Shown one piece after another: positions 1,003 to 19,346 of a stretch of 64,000 nt of DNA; position 1 is the stretch's first letter; each line of letters opens with the position of its first letter. The position numbers and the translations under genes were made by a program. The notes under the pieces are model-generated. The model was not told the origin of the DNA. It ran no database searches and saw nothing but the letters and a program-made list of their open reading frames with translations. This DNA is from Candidatus Peribacter sp. Its GTDB lineage: Bacteria > Patescibacteriota > Gracilibacteria > Peribacterales > Peribacteraceae. The DNA is taken from assembly GCA_030647195.1 (NCBI GenBank), contig JAUSKD010000003.1, positions 28,724-92,723 of the forward strand. Reading direction: 5' to 3'.

Positions 1003-1062
1003 CTGGCTTGATGTTTTATGGCTTCCCAAAGCCATATATACTTACTTGTTGCCATTCATTCC

Positions 1063-2721
1063 ATGAAGCCCAACGCAATCCTCTACTGCCGCGTTTCAGA
1101 TAAGTCCCAGGCTGATGGTCAATCCATCAAACTACAGCCGCCCATGCTTAAAGAATTCGCCACAAAAAATGGCTATAGCGTCTACCGAGTTTTCATTGAT
1201 GTGGCCAAGTCTGGGACTTCCACTGATAAACGTGATGGCCTCTGGGATGCACTCAACCTCATTGAGAAGGAAAACAAGGACAAGAATAAGCCTCGCATTC
1301 AGGCATTTATCGTCCAAGACACGGACAGGCTGGCGCGAAATGAGAAAGACCATTATCTCATTCGCGCCCACCTGAAGAAGTACGGCGTTATTCTTCTCTC
1401 CAAGAATCAGCCAGGTATCAATGATTCGGCGGAAGGGCTTCTCTTAGATACTCTCATGGCCGGAGTTAATGCCTTTCAATCCCGTCTCACCGGACGGAAG
1501 GTACGAAATACCGTTAGCATGATGGCTGAGAATGGACTGACGACGCACAAAGCCCCTCTGGGCTATCTCAATCGCCAGCGAGAGGAAGGAGGTAAGACTA
1601 TCAAGTACGTCGAAAAAGACCCGGACAAGTCAAAGCTGGTTCTTCAGATGTTTCGTCTATACAGTAAAGGATTGTATTCGCTTCATGCCCTTGCCAAGTA
1701 TATGAACAAACGTGGCCTCACAACGACAGGCGATAAGCCGCTTCAGGCAAGCGGACTAAGTGAGATAATGAACAACCGCTATTACTTGGGCAAGATTAAG
1801 CACAACGGAAAGGAGTTTCAGGGAAAACATCCTCGGCTGATTTCAGATGCATTATTCAAGCAATGCGCGAAAATATTGGAAATTCAGCGTAATCACGCCT
1901 CACGCCGCAGGAAACCGAAGAACACCAAGCTGTTCTATCTGAAGGACGTGCTGAAGTGCGGTTCCTGCGGCTACCGTGTGACAGGAGGTGGTTCCAAGGG
2001 CAGAGACCACATGTACAACTATTACTACTGCGGAAGACTCATGCGAGACCCAAAGTATCACTCGAAGAAGGGCAATTGCGTCAATCTTCCAGAAATCCAC
2101 GCTGAGATTCAGGACTTCTTCGGATTATTGGAGTTAACCCCGGACATTGTGGAGGAGGTGAAGATGAAGGCCGCCCAAATACTTTCAGAGACGCATGGCG
2201 ACATGGACGGTGAAAGGGCAGAGATTCAGCGCAATCTCACCCGTCTCGACCATCAGAGGAAGAAACTCGAAGGCTTGTGGCTGGCTGATGAGGTGGTTGA
2301 GGATTATTACAATCGCAACCACAAGACCATCGAGGCTGAAATCACAGCAGCCGAACAGCGTCTTTTGGAAATATCCGGCCTCCGCACAGACAGGACGACG
2401 ATGTTTGAAGCATTGGTGAGATTGGCTAGAGACCTTCCTGCGGCCTACGAGAAGGCCAATCCTGAGGTGAAACGCATGTACCTTAAAATCTTTTGGGAAT
2501 GTTTTGAAATAGGGGGTGGCACGGTGCAAAAGGCGGTTCCATCAAAGGTTGTAACCGCGTTAATTCACGAAAAGCTTATAAATCTTAAAGCCAATTCGCA
2601 GAATCGGAAATTTTTAGTAAGTAAGGTTTGGCTCCCCCGGCTGGACTCGAACCAGCAACCAATCGGTTACACGTTGCCCTTCTGTTTCCAGAAGGAGTGG
2701 ACTATATCATCACCCATCTGA
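1063..2721 (+). CDS. Large serine recombinase (integrase type)
   Basis: N-terminal resolvase catalytic motif ILYCRVSDKSQ, a central recombinase region, the Cys-rich zinc ribbon CGSCGYRV...YYYCG and a C-terminal coiled coil. Start placed at MKPNAILY, with an alternative upstream ATG at 1018. The last ~30 codons (LPRLDSNQQP...) are antisense to the tRNA-Asn 3' exon and intron, so the stop codon is supplied by host DNA. Confidence 0.85.
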   Translation: MKPNAILYCRVSDKSQADGQSIKLQPPMLKEFATKNGYSVYRVFIDVAKSGTSTDKRDGLWDALNLIEKENKDKNKPRIQAFIVQDTDRLARNEKDHYLIRAHLKKYGVILLSKNQPGINDSAEGLLLDTLMAGVNAFQSRLTGRKVRNTVSMMAENGLTTHKAPLGYLNRQREEGGKTIKYVEKDPDKSKLVLQMFRLYSKGLYSLHALAKYMNKRGLTTTGDKPLQASGLSEIMNNRYYLGKIKHNGKEFQGKHPRLISDALFKQCAKILEIQRNHASRRRKPKNTKLFYLKDVLKCGSCGYRVTGGGSKGRDHMYNYYYCGRLMRDPKYHSKKGNCVNLPEIHAEIQDFFGLLELTPDIVEEVKMKAAQILSETHGDMDGERAEIQRNLTRLDHQRKKLEGLWLADEVVEDYYNRNHKTIEAEITAAEQRLLEISGLRTDRTTMFEALVRLARDLPAAYEKANPEVKRMYLKIFWECFEIGGGTVQKAVPSKVVTALIHEKLINLKANSQNRKFLVSKVWLPRLDSNQQPIGYTLPFCFQKEWTISSPI

Positions 2722-3235
2722 GTGTGAGGGTGCGAGGCGCTTCGGCCAGTCCCGCATGTGCGGGACGGGGCTACTCCATAAAGGATAGTCTCTGAACCTT
2801 CCGAGATTCTTCATTCAGAATCAGGGCTTGGCTGCTGATTGCCCTTCGCTTTCGCGGGAGGGTTTCCAGCAATTCACCTCGTTATCGACCCAGGATTTCC
2901 CTGGGAAGCTGCGTTACACCACCATGCAATTCCTGATGACAGTTTGTACAAACGAGGACGCACTTGTCCGCCTCAGTTTTCACCTTGTTCCATGAGCGGG
3001 TTAATCCTCGTGCGGAAAGGCCGAATTCTTTCTGCTTTCCATCAATATGATGAAGGGCGAATGCGCCAATATATTTGTGGTATCCGCAAATGACGCACTT
3101 GCCTCCTTTGTACGCGACAACCATTTCACGAAGTTTCCTTCGTCGCTTGGCTACCGCTTTCTTCAGGTACACCGCACGGTCGGCGTAGGTACGTTTCTCT
3201 GGCATACACATGTGAGTATACCATGAGATGTGTTC
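2670..3235 (-). mobile_element. Group I intron (ribozyme core plus homing-endonuclease ORF) inside tRNA-Asn
   Basis: The 5' exon ends in U and the intron ends in G. In RNA sense the classical core elements occur in order: P AAUUGCUGGAAACC, Q AAUCAGCAGC, R GUUCAGAGACUAUC, S AUGAUAUAGUCC, with P/Q and R/S complementary. GAAA-capped hairpins are present (CGC-GAAA-GCG; CCUUCUG-GAAA-CAGAAGG just before the 3' splice site). Confidence 0.8.
2882..3211 (-). CDS. HNH-family homing endonuclease encoded in the intron
   Basis: 109-aa ORF on the tRNA strand that starts 24 nt after the 5' splice site and stops 10 nt before the P element. Motifs are CVICGY...ALHHIDGK...VLVCTNCHQELH, i.e. two CxxC pairs plus an HH..N..H signature. 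Confidence 0.75.
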   Translation of the reverse strand: MCMPEKRTYADRAVYLKKAVAKRRRKLREMVVAYKGGKCVICGYHKYIGAFALHHIDGKQKEFGLSARGLTRSWNKVKTEADKCVLVCTNCHQELHGGVTQLPREILGR

Positions 3236-3369
3236 ACAGCCGATTGCTCTACCATTGAGCTACAGGGGACCGATGCATGCAAAGAACAGGACAGTCACTG
3301 ATGTACGACTGGCGTCAGTATACGGATACCCGGCTGAGAAGAAATAGTGAAAAACATCGGATATTCTTC

Positions 3370-4638
3370 CTATTTCCTCTTCTTCGGTATCAGCAGCACG
3401 ATTTCGCGTCCCACGTACTGATCCGGGCGGCGGTAGAGGAGCGAGAGTCGTTCTGCACGGCTGGGCGCTATGCCCGGGGGGAGCGTGGCCATGTATCCGG
3501 CACTGTGCGCGGCATCCCACGCGCGATCGAGAAATATCGTCTCATTCTTGATCTTCCAGAAGGGCCACGTGAGTGCGAGTGGGACCCCGGGGAGCGTCTT
3601 GCTACAATTCTCGATGAAGGCAGCCTCCAGCTTCTCGAGCTCCGTCTTGATTTTGGCGGCGGACTTCTGCGACGGGCGGTCTTCGAGGGCGGGGCCGAGC
3701 GTCGTCTCGCTCACGACGATATCCGGCAGTTTCTTTAAGACAAAGGGCTTGGTGGCATCCTGTTTCCACACCAGAGAGTCCGTGTCCTTTTTGAGGATCT
3801 TCATCTCCTTGCGCAGCCATTCGATGTTCTTCTCACTGCCATTCACCGCCTTCTGCATGAGGTCAGAGGCCAGCACGTGCCATCCGCGTACCAGACACTC
3901 GAGCGGGATCACGCCCGTCCCACAGAAGGGATCAAGCACAGTCAGAGGTTCAGATTTCTTCGCTTTCTTCAACACGAGATCCGGAACGGGAGTCTGGCCG
4001 CCGCGGCCCAGCCACGCGCCCAGATTGAGCAGGATCTGTGCGAGCTTGGGTGGCAGCAGCCCCACCGTCGTATCGCGCACGGGTTTGCCGATATCCCGCT
4101 TCGTGTAGGCGTTCACATCCTGCGCGGCCACGGTGCGGCCGACCCAGAGTGTTCTGTTTTCCTCTTCGTCACCCTCGTAGAGCAAAACAAGCTCGCACCC
4201 ACGCTTGGGATCGAGTAACCCCGCGTCGCGCAGGAGCACGGTCGCCGCCGGTTCGCGTTCGCTGCCGACGTAGCGGCAGGGGCGTCCCTGCTTTCTGAGC
4301 GACTCCTTGCACTGGCGGTAGAGAGTGTGGATCGTCTGTCTGGGCATCAGGAAGGTGCGCAGCGCGAACACGACCTTGCCCCGCTTTGCGTCTTTGAGTT
4401 CGCTCAAGAGGATGGAAGGCACTTCCGCGAGGGTCACCGCCTGATCCGTCACCCGCCGGGCCAAAATCACGATGCCGCCCAGCGTATCCAGGAATGCGCC
4501 GTCCAGTTCCACGGGACTCTCGAAGAGCACGATGGAATCATTGAGGAGCGAGCGGAAGACGAATCCCGGCACGGTGGCCGAGAGTTCGGCGAGGGAAATG
4601 CGTGGTTGGTGACCGAGAAAGGCGGCGTACGATGGCAT
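3370..4638 (-). CDS. SAM-dependent methyltransferase (Trm11/UPF0020-like, probably RNA-modifying)
   Basis: SAM-binding motif LDPFCGTGVIPLECL. The expected motif IV (D/N-PPY) is replaced by SETTLGP. Start moved to MPSYAAF (4638) because the upstream 30 codons lie in an intergenic repeat. Confidence 0.55.
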   Translation of the reverse strand: MPSYAAFLGHQPRISLAELSATVPGFVFRSLLNDSIVLFESPVELDGAFLDTLGGIVILARRVTDQAVTLAEVPSILLSELKDAKRGKVVFALRTFLMPRQTIHTLYRQCKESLRKQGRPCRYVGSEREPAATVLLRDAGLLDPKRGCELVLLYEGDEEENRTLWVGRTVAAQDVNAYTKRDIGKPVRDTTVGLLPPKLAQILLNLGAWLGRGGQTPVPDLVLKKAKKSEPLTVLDPFCGTGVIPLECLVRGWHVLASDLMQKAVNGSEKNIEWLRKEMKILKKDTDSLVWKQDATKPFVLKKLPDIVVSETTLGPALEDRPSQKSAAKIKTELEKLEAAFIENCSKTLPGVPLALTWPFWKIKNETIFLDRAWDAAHSAGYMATLPPGIAPSRAERLSLLYRRPDQYVGREIVLLIPKKRK

Positions 4639-4682
4639 CGCATGGCAGGATAGCGTTGCAGGGGATGTTCGTACAGCTGTTG

Positions 4683-4806
4683 AAGGATTCAGGATTTCAG
4701 GGAACCAGGATTGCATGGAAGATCTCAAGAAAACAGGATCTCAAGAGGACAATCGACCCTTTGGATCCTGATTCCTTCCCTGAATTCCTGCATTCCTGGA
4801 ACCCTG
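4683..4806. repeat. Imperfect inverted arrays of GGATTNCA / CAGGAAT-type 7-8-mers
   Basis: Left arm AAGGATTCAGGATTTCAGGGAACCAGGATTGCATGG (4683-4718). Right arm GGATCCTGATTCCTTCCCTGAATTCCTGCATTCCTGGAACCCTG (4763-4806) is its approximate reverse complement. The spacer holds the direct repeat GATCTCAAGA x2. Confidence 0.5.
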
Positions 4807-7541: not shown

Positions 7542-9347
7542 TTATTTTTCCTCTTGGGCCACGGTGATCTCTTTCGCGCCTCCTCCGAGCACTGCTTTGA
7601 TGCGCCGCACACCAGCCGAGGAGCTCTCTTCTTTCTGGATCTTGAATGTTCCAAGCATCCCCGTGCGGGCAACGTGAGGTCCGCCGCAGATTTCTTTGCT
7701 GAAGACTTTCTCCCCCTTGCCGACCACGTAGACTTTGACTTCGGCTCCGTAGCGCGCGTCAAAGACTCCTATCGCGCCCTCCTTCTTCGCACCTTCCACA
7801 TCCGTCACGTGGTAGGTCACGGGCAAATCCGCTGCAATCGCGCCATTCACCAGTTGCTCCACTTCTGTGATCTGCTCCGGCGTCATTTTGTCCGGATGAC
7901 TGAAGTCGAAGCGAAGCCGCTCCGCCGTAATGTTGCTTCCCTTCTGGAAGACGTGGTCGCCGAGGACCTTTCGGAGAGCGGCATCGAGCAGGTGGGTCGC
8001 CGTGTGCAGCTTGGTCGTTTCGCCGCTGTGATCCTGCAGGCCGCCCTTGAACTTGGCTTCCGCTCCGGCGCGCGAGAGCGACTGATGCTCCTCGAATTTC
8101 TTTTTGAATCCCTGCTCATCCACGGTGAGTCCCTTCTCGAGCGCGAGCTCCTTCGTCAGCTCCAGCGGAAATCCGTAGGTGTCGTAGAGGTGGAAGACCG
8201 TCGTGCCATCCATCTGTGTTCCTGTTTCCTGCACCGCCCGCTCGAACTGTTTCATCCCTTCTTTCAGCGTCCTGCCGAACTGCTCTTCCTCCCGTTTGAG
8301 GGCATCCAAAATATCCGTGCGTCGTTCCTTCAGTTTTTCGTATACGTGGCCGTACTGGGCAACCACCGTCTCGGCGATTGCAGGCGTGAACGTGCCGTCG
8401 TGTTCTATCTTCAGTTGCCGCGCGGAGCGGATGGCCCGGCGGATGAGGCGCCGCAGAATGTAGCCCTGATCCACGTTCGAGGGCAGAACGCCGTCGGCGA
8501 TGATGAACGTCGCCGCCTTGAGGTGATCCACAATGATGCGCAGATGCCGTTCATCCTTCTGGTCTGCCATCTGCATCACGCGGTCGAAAATCGGTTTCAT
8601 CCGGTCCGTCTCGTACACGTTCGCCGCCCCCTGCAGCACCCGGGCGATGCGCTCCAGTCCCATCCCCGTATCCACGTTCTGCTGCTTTAAGGGCTCGAAA
8701 GTACCGTCCGCCTTTTTGTTGTACTGCATGAAGACGTCGTTCCAGACCTCCATCCAGTCCGCGTCATGCGTCGCCGGGTTTCCCTGCGGCTTGCCCTTGC
8801 CCACCCAGTAGAACATCTCGGTATCGGGTCCGCACGGGCCGGTCTGCCCTGCCGGTCCCCACCAGTTGTTGGCCTTGGGCAGGAAGCCGATGCGCTCACG
8901 CGGCATGCCCATTTTTTCCCAGATTCCGGCCGACTCCTCGTCCTTCGGCGCGTCCTTGTCGCCTGCGAAGCACGTCACTGCCAGCATCTCCTTTGGAATT
9001 TCCAGGATCTCCGTGAGGAAGCGGTAACTCATGGAAATCGCTCCTTCCTTGAAATAATCCCCGAGGCTCCAGTTGCCCAGCATCTCGAAGAACGTTAAAT
9101 GTGACGCGTCTCCCACTTCGTCGATGTCCTGCGTGCGGATGCACTTCTGCACGTCCGTGAGGCGCTTGCCCGCCGGGTGCGCTTCGCCGAGCAGATAGGG
9201 AACGAGCGGGTGCATGCCGGCCGTGGTGAAGAGCACGGTCGGATCATTTTCGGGAATGAGCGAGGCGCCCGGGATCACGGCATGTCCCTGCCCTCTGAAG
9301 AAGTCCAGGTATGCCTTTCGAATGTCATCTGTGGTCATGGGAGGCAT
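7542..9347 (-). CDS. alaS: Alanyl-tRNA synthetase, compact form (601 aa) lacking a C-Ala domain
   Basis: N-terminus DIRKAYLDFFRGQGHAVIPGASLIPENDPTVLFTTAGMHPLVPY...FEMLGNWSLGDYFK. Editing-domain motifs HTATHLL and CGGPHV are present. The protein ends shortly after the editing domain. Confidence 0.9.
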   Translation of the reverse strand: MPPMTTDDIRKAYLDFFRGQGHAVIPGASLIPENDPTVLFTTAGMHPLVPYLLGEAHPAGKRLTDVQKCIRTQDIDEVGDASHLTFFEMLGNWSLGDYFKEGAISMSYRFLTEILEIPKEMLAVTCFAGDKDAPKDEESAGIWEKMGMPRERIGFLPKANNWWGPAGQTGPCGPDTEMFYWVGKGKPQGNPATHDADWMEVWNDVFMQYNKKADGTFEPLKQQNVDTGMGLERIARVLQGAANVYETDRMKPIFDRVMQMADQKDERHLRIIVDHLKAATFIIADGVLPSNVDQGYILRRLIRRAIRSARQLKIEHDGTFTPAIAETVVAQYGHVYEKLKERRTDILDALKREEEQFGRTLKEGMKQFERAVQETGTQMDGTTVFHLYDTYGFPLELTKELALEKGLTVDEQGFKKKFEEHQSLSRAGAEAKFKGGLQDHSGETTKLHTATHLLDAALRKVLGDHVFQKGSNITAERLRFDFSHPDKMTPEQITEVEQLVNGAIAADLPVTYHVTDVEGAKKEGAIGVFDARYGAEVKVYVVGKGEKVFSKEICGGPHVARTGMLGTFKIQKEESSSAGVRRIKAVLGGGAKEITVAQEEK

Positions 9348-18944: not shown

Positions 18945-19346
18945 GGGGATGATTTGGTTTCGACAGCGTGATACTGGTGGAGTTTCGCTTCTGTTCGGGA
19001 GGGCAACGGTTCCCGCACCCACTGTTGCAAACAATATCTGCCACTGCAGATGTACCGGCGGTCTTTAAGAAGGCGTTCGCGAACTTCACGTTTGCGCCCG
19101 CATTCGCACTGGCTGCCTAAGTCCGTTTCATGCGGACACGTCTCACTCTCGATTCTCGCTACAGGGATGAGGCGTAATCAGCGAGGCAGCGTCGCCGTCT
19201 GATGTCGCGGTGACGCGGTCAACCAGGCATCATCCCTCGCACCTTTCTCTGCTCTTCTCTTAGGGCTGCGAGTACGAGAAGTCCATGACAGCACAAGCAG
19301 CTTCGCTACACGTTGGACCCGGGTTCGATTCCCGGCATCTCCACCA
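18945..19346 (+). ncRNA. ssrA: tmRNA (transfer-messenger RNA)
   Basis: The 5' end GGGGATGATTTGGTTTCGACAGCG and the 3' end GGACCCGGGTTCGATTCCCGGCATCTCCACCA form the tRNA-Ala-like domain. The internal tag frame ends ...FAPAFALAA-TAA (stop at 19118-19120). Confidence 0.9.

Follow-up and report, generated by a model that had tools for sequence, protein, structure and literature searches.

The locus

The window analysed here is a 64-kb stretch of DNA (64,000 nucleotides, nt) from Candidatus Peribacter sp., contig JAUSKD010000003.1. Its minus strand carries a tRNA-Asn(GUU) gene that is split by a group I intron between nucleotides 35 and 36 (CUGU/intron/UAA), and the intron contains an open reading frame (ORF) for a predicted HNH endonuclease. 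Homologues of the HNH protein form more than 256 clusters, mostly from bacteria of the candidate phyla radiation (CPR). A scan of Patescibacteria species-representative genomes gave at least 523 stretches that encode it, and the best 80 of these (L001 to L080) are the related loci referred to below. The features of the split gene are:

3236-3269, minus strand: 5′ exon of tRNA-Asn(GUU), tRNA nucleotides 1 to 35, ending in ...CUGU (ARAGORN on the joined exons; exon hidden Markov model, 62 or more related loci)
2629-2669, minus strand: 3′ exon of tRNA-Asn, from U36 to CCA, with discriminator G73 (ARAGORN on the joined exons)
2670-3235, minus strand: group I intron of 566 nt; its first base is G(+1) at 3235 and its last base the terminal (omega) G at 2670 (Rfam match; boundaries from the register common to 62 loci)
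2882-3205 (or from 3211), minus strand: putative HNH endonuclease ORF in loop L1, 107 amino acids from a conserved Met-Pro start or 109 amino acids from the ATG at 3211 (PHROG matches; invariant motifs)
3200-3223, minus strand: conserved TGGTATACT (3223-3215) and GUAUGCCA (3207-3200), predicted to fold into an 8-bp hairpin that covers the start codon; the region also reads as an extended -10-like box, 9 nt 5′ of the ATG (motif conservation; RNAalifold)

The split tRNA-Asn gene

A sequence-only reading of the window had placed two tRNA halves 566 nt apart on the minus strand and had joined them into a canonical cloverleaf by removal of 2670-3235. This is borne out. The 5′ exon (3269-3236) has the sequence TCCCCTGTAGCTCAATGGTAGAGCAATCGGCTGT, the 3′ exon (2669-2629) has the sequence TAACCGATTGGTTGCTGGTTCGAGTCCAGCCGGGGGAGCCA, with the CCA encoded, and the joined exons begin GGTAGAGCAATCGGCTGTTAACCGAT. 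With 2670-3235 deleted, ARAGORN calls a 75-nt tRNA-Asn(GTT) that displays a regular cloverleaf, a U1-A72 pair, the discriminator G73 and the encoded CCA. The 5′ exon closes with U (3236) and the intron with G (2670), as had been read. In a metagenome scan, at least 120 tRNA-Asn genes that have no intron contain the 26 nt across the exon junction as one unbroken sequence; the sequence-only reading had suggested that intron-less alleles be sought.

The same reading held that the halves can be joined in one way only. The Asn join stands, on the strength of 62 loci, and its uniqueness does not, as two splice registers are open in the window. One, GGCUGU/GAAC...ACGUG/UAACC, produces tRNA-Asn(GUU). 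In the other the intron lies two bases further 5′, GGCU/GUGAAC...AACG/UGUAACC, and the product is tRNA-Thr(UGU). Both have U at position -1 and G at the intron end, and ARAGORN in its intron mode settles on the Thr register, in the window as in about half of the relatives. Because the window alone fits both, the Asn register had to come from comparison. The sole register common to all 62 related split genes is CUGU/...G/UAA, and read in this way the terminal G is found in 62 of 62. The introns of 23 relatives have ...ATG or ...TTG as their last bases ahead of TAA, and the Thr register is left without a terminal G there. Loci L013 and L035 would have AGU and CGU anticodons in the Thr register; GUU alone is constant. 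The guide GCAG also sets a U.G wobble after CUGU, and the U1-A72 pair and G73 of the tRNA body match those of uninterrupted tRNA-Asn genes that have the same 26-nt junction. A tRNA-Thr gene is thus highly improbable, and by these comparisons the split gene is tRNA-Asn.

The region 2629-3269 of the minus strand is an annotation hazard. ARAGORN in its default mode calls no tRNA there, and the intron mode reports the tRNA-Thr(UGU) mentioned above. CPR genomes with this element would appear to have no tRNA-Asn under standard tRNA finders. We infer that the window gene is single copy and probably the only tRNA-Asn(GUU) gene of its Peribacteria genome. If it is the sole tRNA-Asn gene of this reduced genome, translation of every Asn codon hangs on a ribozyme.

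The group I ribozyme

The segment 2670-3235 is a group I intron. Rfam model RF00028 (Intron_gpI) matches 2678-2938 of the minus strand over the full model, positions 1-253, with 85.3 bits (gathering score 50) and E 2.7e-20, a score that chance does not explain; this covariance-model search had been proposed as a check by the sequence-only reading. The parts of the ribozyme, all on the minus strand, are:

2874-2861, 2840-2831, 2797-2784 and 2710-2699: core strings P, Q, R and S, respectively, located in the sequence
3235-3240: P1 5′ strand, consisting of G31, C32 U33 G34 U35 and intron G+1; pairs with C-GCAGC at 2913-2908
2908-2913: internal guide and P1 3′ strand, C-GCAGC, within the codons Thr-Gln-Leu of the ORF; kept in 55 of 55 relatives
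2889-2905: P2 hairpin, CCCAGG-GAAAU-CCUGGG, which doubles as coding sequence of the ORF tail; 5 of 6 pairs show compensatory double changes in 57 sequences
2670-2881: ribozyme core, P3-P9 (Rfam alignment; RNAalifold covariation)
2881-2875/2740-2733: P3
2874-2831: P4-P5
2831-2797: P6
2797-2784/2710-2699: P7, formed by R and S
2784-2742: two extra hairpins between P7 and P3′
2732-2711: P8
2697-2677: P9

The order of P, Q, R and S had been read correctly, as had the GAAA-capped peripheral hairpins: GAAA-type loops close P2, P5 and P9. From 57 aligned ribozyme parts, RNAalifold derives 32 pairs. Compensatory double changes occur at 24 of these, in P2, P4, P5, P6 and P9, and P7 does not vary. In the long-range P3, pairing reaches 93.5%, with covariation at five of the six pairs. 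The hairpin directly after P7, which is P7.1-like, is 92% paired and also has compensatory changes. The observed covariation score was reached by none of 500 shuffles, and pairing fell to 37-48% when partners were slid by 1-3 columns. Subgroup IC3 introns have a core without P7.1/P7.2-type insertions. The window intron carries the two hairpins at 2784-2742, and it is not assigned to IC3 because these hold the P7.1/P7.2 place of subgroup IA introns.

Exon bases CUGU and the guide GCAG (2912-2909) form four invariant pairs, C-G, U-A, G-C and U.G, and in the window G31 pairs as well. The guide sequence GCAGC (2912-2908) is invariant in all 55 relatives, and intron position +1 covaries with the base 5′ of the guide (G-C in 49, A-U in 5 and unpaired in 1). 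This guide and its pairing with the exon, including the U.G wobble, had been put forward by the sequence-only reading, together with a P1 loop that contains the ORF; both proposals hold. The strongest support for P1 comes from the ORF-less introns of relatives, which are group I introns by Rfam. Here the same P1 strands are joined by a loop of 4-10 nt, for example CUGU/GU-UGAU-AC-GCAG in L009 and CUGU/C-GAAG-GCAG in L038. As the guide sits in the last codons of the HNH ORF, the ORF fills loop L1, and the L1 of the window is ∼320 nt in length.

The HNH open reading frame

The ORF spans nt 25/31 to 354 of the 566-nt intron, or ∼58% of its length, and not only the 5′ third, as the sequence-only reading had it. 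The identification as HNH was sound: PHROG HNH families are matched at E 5.6e-26 and 9.9e-24. In an alignment of 32 homologues, residues C39, C42, H54, H55, C88, C91, H92 and H96 never vary and conservation of N90 is at least 90%, such that a His...Asn...His catalytic motif and two CxxC zinc-binding pairs are present. Pfam family PF01844 has weak matches in 31 of 32 family members. A PDB profile search finds HNH domains in the maturase from a group II intron (6me0, E 0.003) and in McrA (6ghc), and the alignment to both spans the conserved residues. The AlphaFold2 model has a pLDDT of 87. By these motifs and matches, the ORF product is a predicted HNH nuclease. An enzyme of ∼105 amino acids with a presumably long tRNA-gene target could serve as a nicking or cleaving tool.

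Coding and ribozyme functions share bases at the end of the ORF. The protein tail reads ...GVTQLPREILGR; the guide is found within the Thr-Gln-Leu codons, the next codons form P2, and the stop codon (2884-2882, minus strand) lies between P2 and P3. The 90-codon core of the ORF has the same length in 57 of 57 loci, with no indel, and dN/dS ranges from 0.02 to 0.31, with a median of 0.17 over 36 unsaturated pairs. Because of the low dN/dS and the lack of indels in the 57 cores, the gene is judged to be maintained as a protein, under purifying selection.

In-frame stop codons are present in three of 62 intron-borne HNH ORFs (L029, L047 and L075), which are probably decaying copies. The stop in L029 is TGA, a sense codon in lineages that read UGA so.

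A conserved signal upstream of the open reading frame

From the 5′ splice site to the start codon the sequence is variable apart from TGGTATACT. The motif TGnTATA[AC]T is found in 49 of 60 intron-borne ORFs and ends 9-10 nt before the ATG in 46 of the 47 scored. A Shine-Dalgarno-like motif is present in none of the 60 intron-borne copies, and its lack suggests a leaderless message. Free-standing copies of the HNH gene, described below, are preceded by the GGTATA core in 12 of 13 cases, with the full TGnTATA[AC]T box in five. RNAalifold also predicts an 8-bp hairpin in which UGGUAUAC pairs with the AUG-containing GUAUGCCA; its calculated energy in the window is -10.4 kcal/mol.

The motif may control expression both as a hairpin and as a promoter. 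The odds are about even that it is instead only one of these, either an RNA hairpin that serves translational control or L1 folding, or a promoter. The hairpin is favoured by the RNAalifold prediction and by compensatory cases, with GGCAUGC/GCAUGCC in L045 and A-U for C-G in L033, L042 and L080. The promoter is favoured by the T after TATAC, which sits in the hairpin loop and is still at least 90% conserved, and also by the fixed 9-10 nt spacing to the ATG, by the absence of Shine-Dalgarno motifs and by the presence of the motif before most free-standing copies. The two readings share the same bases, and the sequence alone cannot separate them. A start-codon hairpin in combination with an internal promoter resembles the separation of I-TevI expression from td intron folding.

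Arrangements of the HNH gene in related loci

ARAGORN places the ORF inside a split tRNA in 62 of the 80 related loci. With the addition of L014, L020, L027 and L071, where the tRNA is truncated or mis-called, the ORF is within a split tRNA-Asn gene in at least 66 of 80. In the remaining 14 loci, the HNH ORF lies beside a tRNA-Asn gene:

L009, L015, L021, L025, L031, L034, L046, L049 and L066: free-standing HNH gene that lies 3-70 nt upstream of a tRNA-Asn gene in which an ORF-less intron of 190-245 nt occupies the same site
L038 and L041: HNH gene directly downstream of a tRNA-Asn gene with an ORF-less intron
L051: HNH gene divergent from a tRNA-Asn gene with an ORF-less intron
L048 and L063: HNH gene beside an intron-less tRNA-Asn gene

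A free-standing HNH gene is thus combined with an ORF-less intron in 12 of 80 loci and with an intron-less tRNA-Asn gene in two. The arrangement of collaborative homing, which consists of a free-standing endonuclease and an ORF-less intron at the same site, is found in those 12 loci and not in the window, where the ORF is embedded. The closest loci, L001 and L002, are from Candidatus Peribacteria/Peribacteraceae assemblies; their HNH proteins are 90-92% identical to that of the window, and ∼2 kb of DNA is 80-84% identical.

More distant HNH relatives (44-59% identity), at least 507 in number, are found in viral contigs (IMG/VR), in phage tRNA arrays. The viral loci examined are L201 to L280, e.g. 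L204 2571-3370 and L209 2563-3334; some of these contigs are near-duplicates, such that not all events are independent. The adjacent tRNA is tRNA-Asn(GTT) in 51 of the 70 viral loci that have a tRNA within 500 nt, and tRNA-Asn makes up 65 of the 647 tRNAs there. In five viral loci (L204, L209, L221, L236 and L238), tRNA-Asn genes are present on both sides of the HNH gene.

One viral contig, L208, appears to carry the intron-embedded form.

The mean identity of the ORFs is 0.66-0.68 between ribozyme core types and 0.69-0.80 within them, which hints that ORF and ribozyme have partly separate histories. The distribution fits a family of homing endonucleases specific for tRNA-Asn genes and a collaborative-homing route to composite mobile introns. 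A broader proposal is that the HNH family represents a lineage dedicated to tRNA-Asn genes that has been kept at every proposed stage: free-standing by intact tRNA-Asn genes (phage arrays and two CPR loci), free-standing by an ORF-less intron (12 CPR loci) and embedded in L1 (at least 66 of 80, including the window). In the embedded form, the last codons would serve as guide and P2, and the gene would have its own start-codon hairpin and leaderless-type promoter. This proposal is a tentative one, with a chance of being right that falls a little below even. The interest of the element lies mainly in this family-level picture and less in the single locus. With its hundreds of natural variants of a single intron/endonuclease pair, spread over three arrangements, the family constitutes a good comparative system, which would address how endonuclease genes enter introns and how an ORF comes to share bases with P1 and P2.

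Proposed mechanism

The locus is best explained overall as a working group I intron with a homing HNH ORF, inserted between nucleotides 35 and 36 of tRNA-Asn, and this explanation is considered likely. The gene would be transcribed as a pre-tRNA of ∼640 nt. Bases C32-U35, with G31 and intron G+1, would pair with the guide C-GCAGC, located 323 nt downstream, and the resulting helix would be P1, with the whole HNH ORF looped out as L1. The P3-P9 core would then fold, an exogenous G would attack after U35, and the terminal G (2670) would direct exon ligation to produce a normal 75-nt tRNA-Asn. The HNH protein is predicted to cut or nick intron-less tRNA-Asn genes near the anticodon, and repair would copy the intron with its ORF into the cut genes (homing). 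In the precursor, the hairpin may bury the AUG and keep ORF expression from disturbing ribozyme folding. The extended -10-like box, made of the same bases, might give rise to a near-leaderless mRNA that does not contain the 5′ strand of the hairpin.

Several results weigh against this explanation. Splicing and cleavage are read from sequence only, and the related loci were gathered by means of the HNH protein, which biases the proportions of the arrangements given above. P1 consists of only 4-6 pairs; it is effectively short because the 55 relatives show no covariation of exon positions -5 and -6 with the guide, and -5 can be G, A or C opposite an unchanging C. A P10 pairing of UAACC with bases 5′ of the guide was sought, and as only a 3-bp or bulged, non-conserved match was found, P10 is not claimed. 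With the window protein, Pfam HNH family PF01844 scores 15.3 bits, below its cut-off of 21.4, with nothing at E ≤ 0.01; the empty Pfam result, like that of ARAGORN in its default mode, is put down to limits of the tools. In a Foldseek search of the PDB, 35 of the 41 top matches are HNH or Endo VII domains (Cap5, Cas9, Gme HNH, McrA and Endo VII), none at E ≤ 0.001. Compensatory variants of the AUG hairpin are few and most of its pairs never vary, such that covariation lends it little support. A promoter/terminator scan made no call at the internal site, as it accepts only promoters with a -35 box. Lastly, a close intron-less allele of the window tRNA was not found in the metagenome scan, where the best among the matches listed is identical at 67 of 75 positions.

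Alternative explanations

A different view of the HNH protein is that it no longer functions in homing. It would be a relic or would have a role that serves the host or the intron, for example as a splicing cofactor, and the element would be inherited vertically. The very strong purifying selection and the absence of indels over distant CPR lineages are unusual for purely selfish endonuclease genes, which are prone to decay, and they speak for this view. The sharing of bases between the ORF and P1 and P2 does so as well, and the closest relatives belong to the same bacterial family and have flanking genes in common. On the other side, the catalytic and zinc residues are all kept, and free-standing copies by phage tRNA-Asn genes and by ORF-less-intron or intron-less tRNA-Asn genes fit a DNA-targeting enzyme and not an RNA cofactor. 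We know of no HNH maturase for group I introns. The similarity of the ORFs, moreover, does not track ribozyme core type. A protein that has lost its homing role is therefore unlikely, and a homing endonuclease is preferred.

The other alternative derives from a neighbouring gene, for which the features are:

1018-2721, plus strand: large serine recombinase gene with Resolvase, Recombinase and zinc-ribbon domains
L001, L002, L004, L019, L020, L021, L024, L032, L035, L037, L039, L045, L060 and L066: related loci that bear a recombinase gene

The recombinase gene is tail-to-tail with the tRNA-Asn gene, and ∼30 codons at its end run antisense to the 3′ exon and to the end of the intron. In the 14 other CPR loci this place is taken by divergent recombinases (22-33% identity), which stop at varying points within the tRNA 3′ end. 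With a gene that runs antisense into the 3′ exon, here and in relatives, the tRNA halves might be taken for attachment-site debris of a serine-recombinase element and not for a working gene; attachment-site debris, with no recombinase named, had also been considered by the sequence-only reading. The same halves and intron are conserved in 62 or more genomes, most of which have no recombinase nearby, the intervening 566 nt form a complete ribozyme with covarying helices, and no second copy of the tRNA 3′ end (the attachment-site repeat) is present in the 64-kb window. Since the split gene is kept whether or not a recombinase is present, and since a complete ribozyme lies between the halves, this explanation is excluded for practical purposes. 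The recombinase is better explained as belonging to an integrative element of its own, for which the tRNA-Asn 3′ end serves as attachment site. As divergent recombinases recur there and close relatives share the flank away from the recombinase, serine-recombinase elements of CPR bacteria seem to have used the tRNA-Asn 3′ end repeatedly for attachment.

Other features of the window and of related loci

Directly upstream of the tRNA gene lies an ORF of 452 amino acids (3370-4728, minus strand) with weak methyltransferase-domain matches. Its counterparts in L001 and L002 are syntenic, with 84-88% identity, and the one in L027 has 52% identity. A transfer-messenger RNA (tmRNA) gene at 18945-19346 on the plus strand is found by Rfam (89.2 bits) and by ARAGORN, and its predicted tag peptide is unusually long, with 26 residues, ATADVPAVFKKAFANFTFAPAFALAA. 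An alanyl-tRNA-synthetase-like ORF of 601 amino acids is present at 7542-9347 on the minus strand. The alanyl-tRNA synthetase of E. coli is ∼270 residues longer, and the C-terminal domain of the window ORF is possibly absent. Among related loci, L066, from a Paceibacterota genome, has a LOOT RNA by Rfam (RF03000, 71.9 bits) at 3820-3943 on the plus strand, ∼240 nt downstream of tRNA-Asn.

Comparison with known systems

The number of settings known for group I introns that interrupt tRNA genes of bacteria rose from 4 to 21 with the work of Williams (bioRxiv 2020, doi 10.1101/2020.01.27.920355), which was based on GenBank assemblies of January 2017. Many split tRNA genes were found in metagenome assemblies from unnamed phyla, and it was pointed out that introns of more than ∼400 bp may hold protein genes. 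The seed alignment of that study includes Pam37.Asn.4Ug, which agrees with the window intron in its tRNA and in its 35/36 site, and also Tyr.4Ug, Asp.4Ug and Lys.4Ug introns at 35/36. The window intron is of the Asn.4Ug type: it follows the fourth base of the anticodon loop, CUGU/UAA, with U at -1 and a terminal G. Loci from RIF-series CPR assemblies (e.g. L011, L014, L037 and L060) may already be in the set of Williams. A group I intron at 35/36 of tRNA-Asn is thus already catalogued and not new, contrary to the view of the sequence-only reading, and the element is common in Patescibacteria. The catalogue is one of sites and describes no ORF, HNH motif or P1/L1 architecture. By inspection, Pam37.Asn.4Ug has the guide UGUA, a short L1 and P2/P2.1, whereas the window intron has the guide GCAG, and the core motifs are generic. 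On this basis Pam37.Asn.4Ug probably belongs to another intron lineage that occupies this site.

The other novelty claimed by the sequence-only reading, an HNH enzyme in a bacterial tRNA intron, stands so far as the literature was searched. In a searchable library that is incomplete, no description was found of an HNH gene in a bacterial tRNA intron, of an L1 position that overlaps the guide, or of the association of the family with tRNA-Asn. Also apparently undescribed are the free-standing HNH genes by ORF-less-intron (12 of 80) or intron-less (2) tRNA-Asn genes, the phage relatives by tRNA-Asn and the TGGTATACT/AUG hairpin motif. Sequences of 22-49 nt reported as 'group I introns' of cyanobacterial tRNAs (PMC5733544) are too short for ribozymes and were not used.

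The window intron shares several properties with the classical IC3 introns of tRNA-Leu(UAA), of tRNA-Ile(CAU) of Azoarcus and of tRNA-Arg(CCU). These are the anticodon-loop site, a P1 formed from loop bases, a small core and GAAA-capped P2, P5 and P9. The classical introns are ORF-less and ∼200-250 nt in length, whereas the window intron has two P7-P3′ hairpins and a 330-nt ORF in L1. A tRNA intron with an endonuclease gene is known from cyanobacteria. Its enzyme, I-SspI, belongs to the PD-(D/E)XK family and not to the HNH family. I-SspI is encoded by the group I intron that lies in tRNA-fMet in Synechocystis PCC 6803 (Bonocora and Shub 2001, as cited in PMC3984707). That intron differs from the present one in its tRNA, in its site and in its host, which is a cyanobacterium and not a CPR bacterium.

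In collaborative homing, a free-standing endonuclease and an ORF-less intron share one target site (PMC3984707). A free-standing endonuclease of T4, SegB, has its preferred site in a phage tRNA-Asn gene (PMC2330249), and the free-standing HNH relatives described here likewise adjoin tRNA-Asn genes. SegB is a GIY-YIG and not an HNH enzyme, and it has experimental support; the HNH family is known here through its sequences.

HNH enzymes encoded in group I introns are familiar from phages, as with the I-HmuI type and I-PfoP3I (PMC3428280). ORFs that overlap the ribozyme core are tightly controlled, as exemplified by T4 td/I-TevI (PMC3984707). As in td, the ORF of the window extends into core pairings, and tight control of its expression is to be expected. 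The phage HNH introns reside in protein-coding genes. In the present case, the host gene is that of a bacterial tRNA, the ORF lies in L1, and its last codons are the guide.

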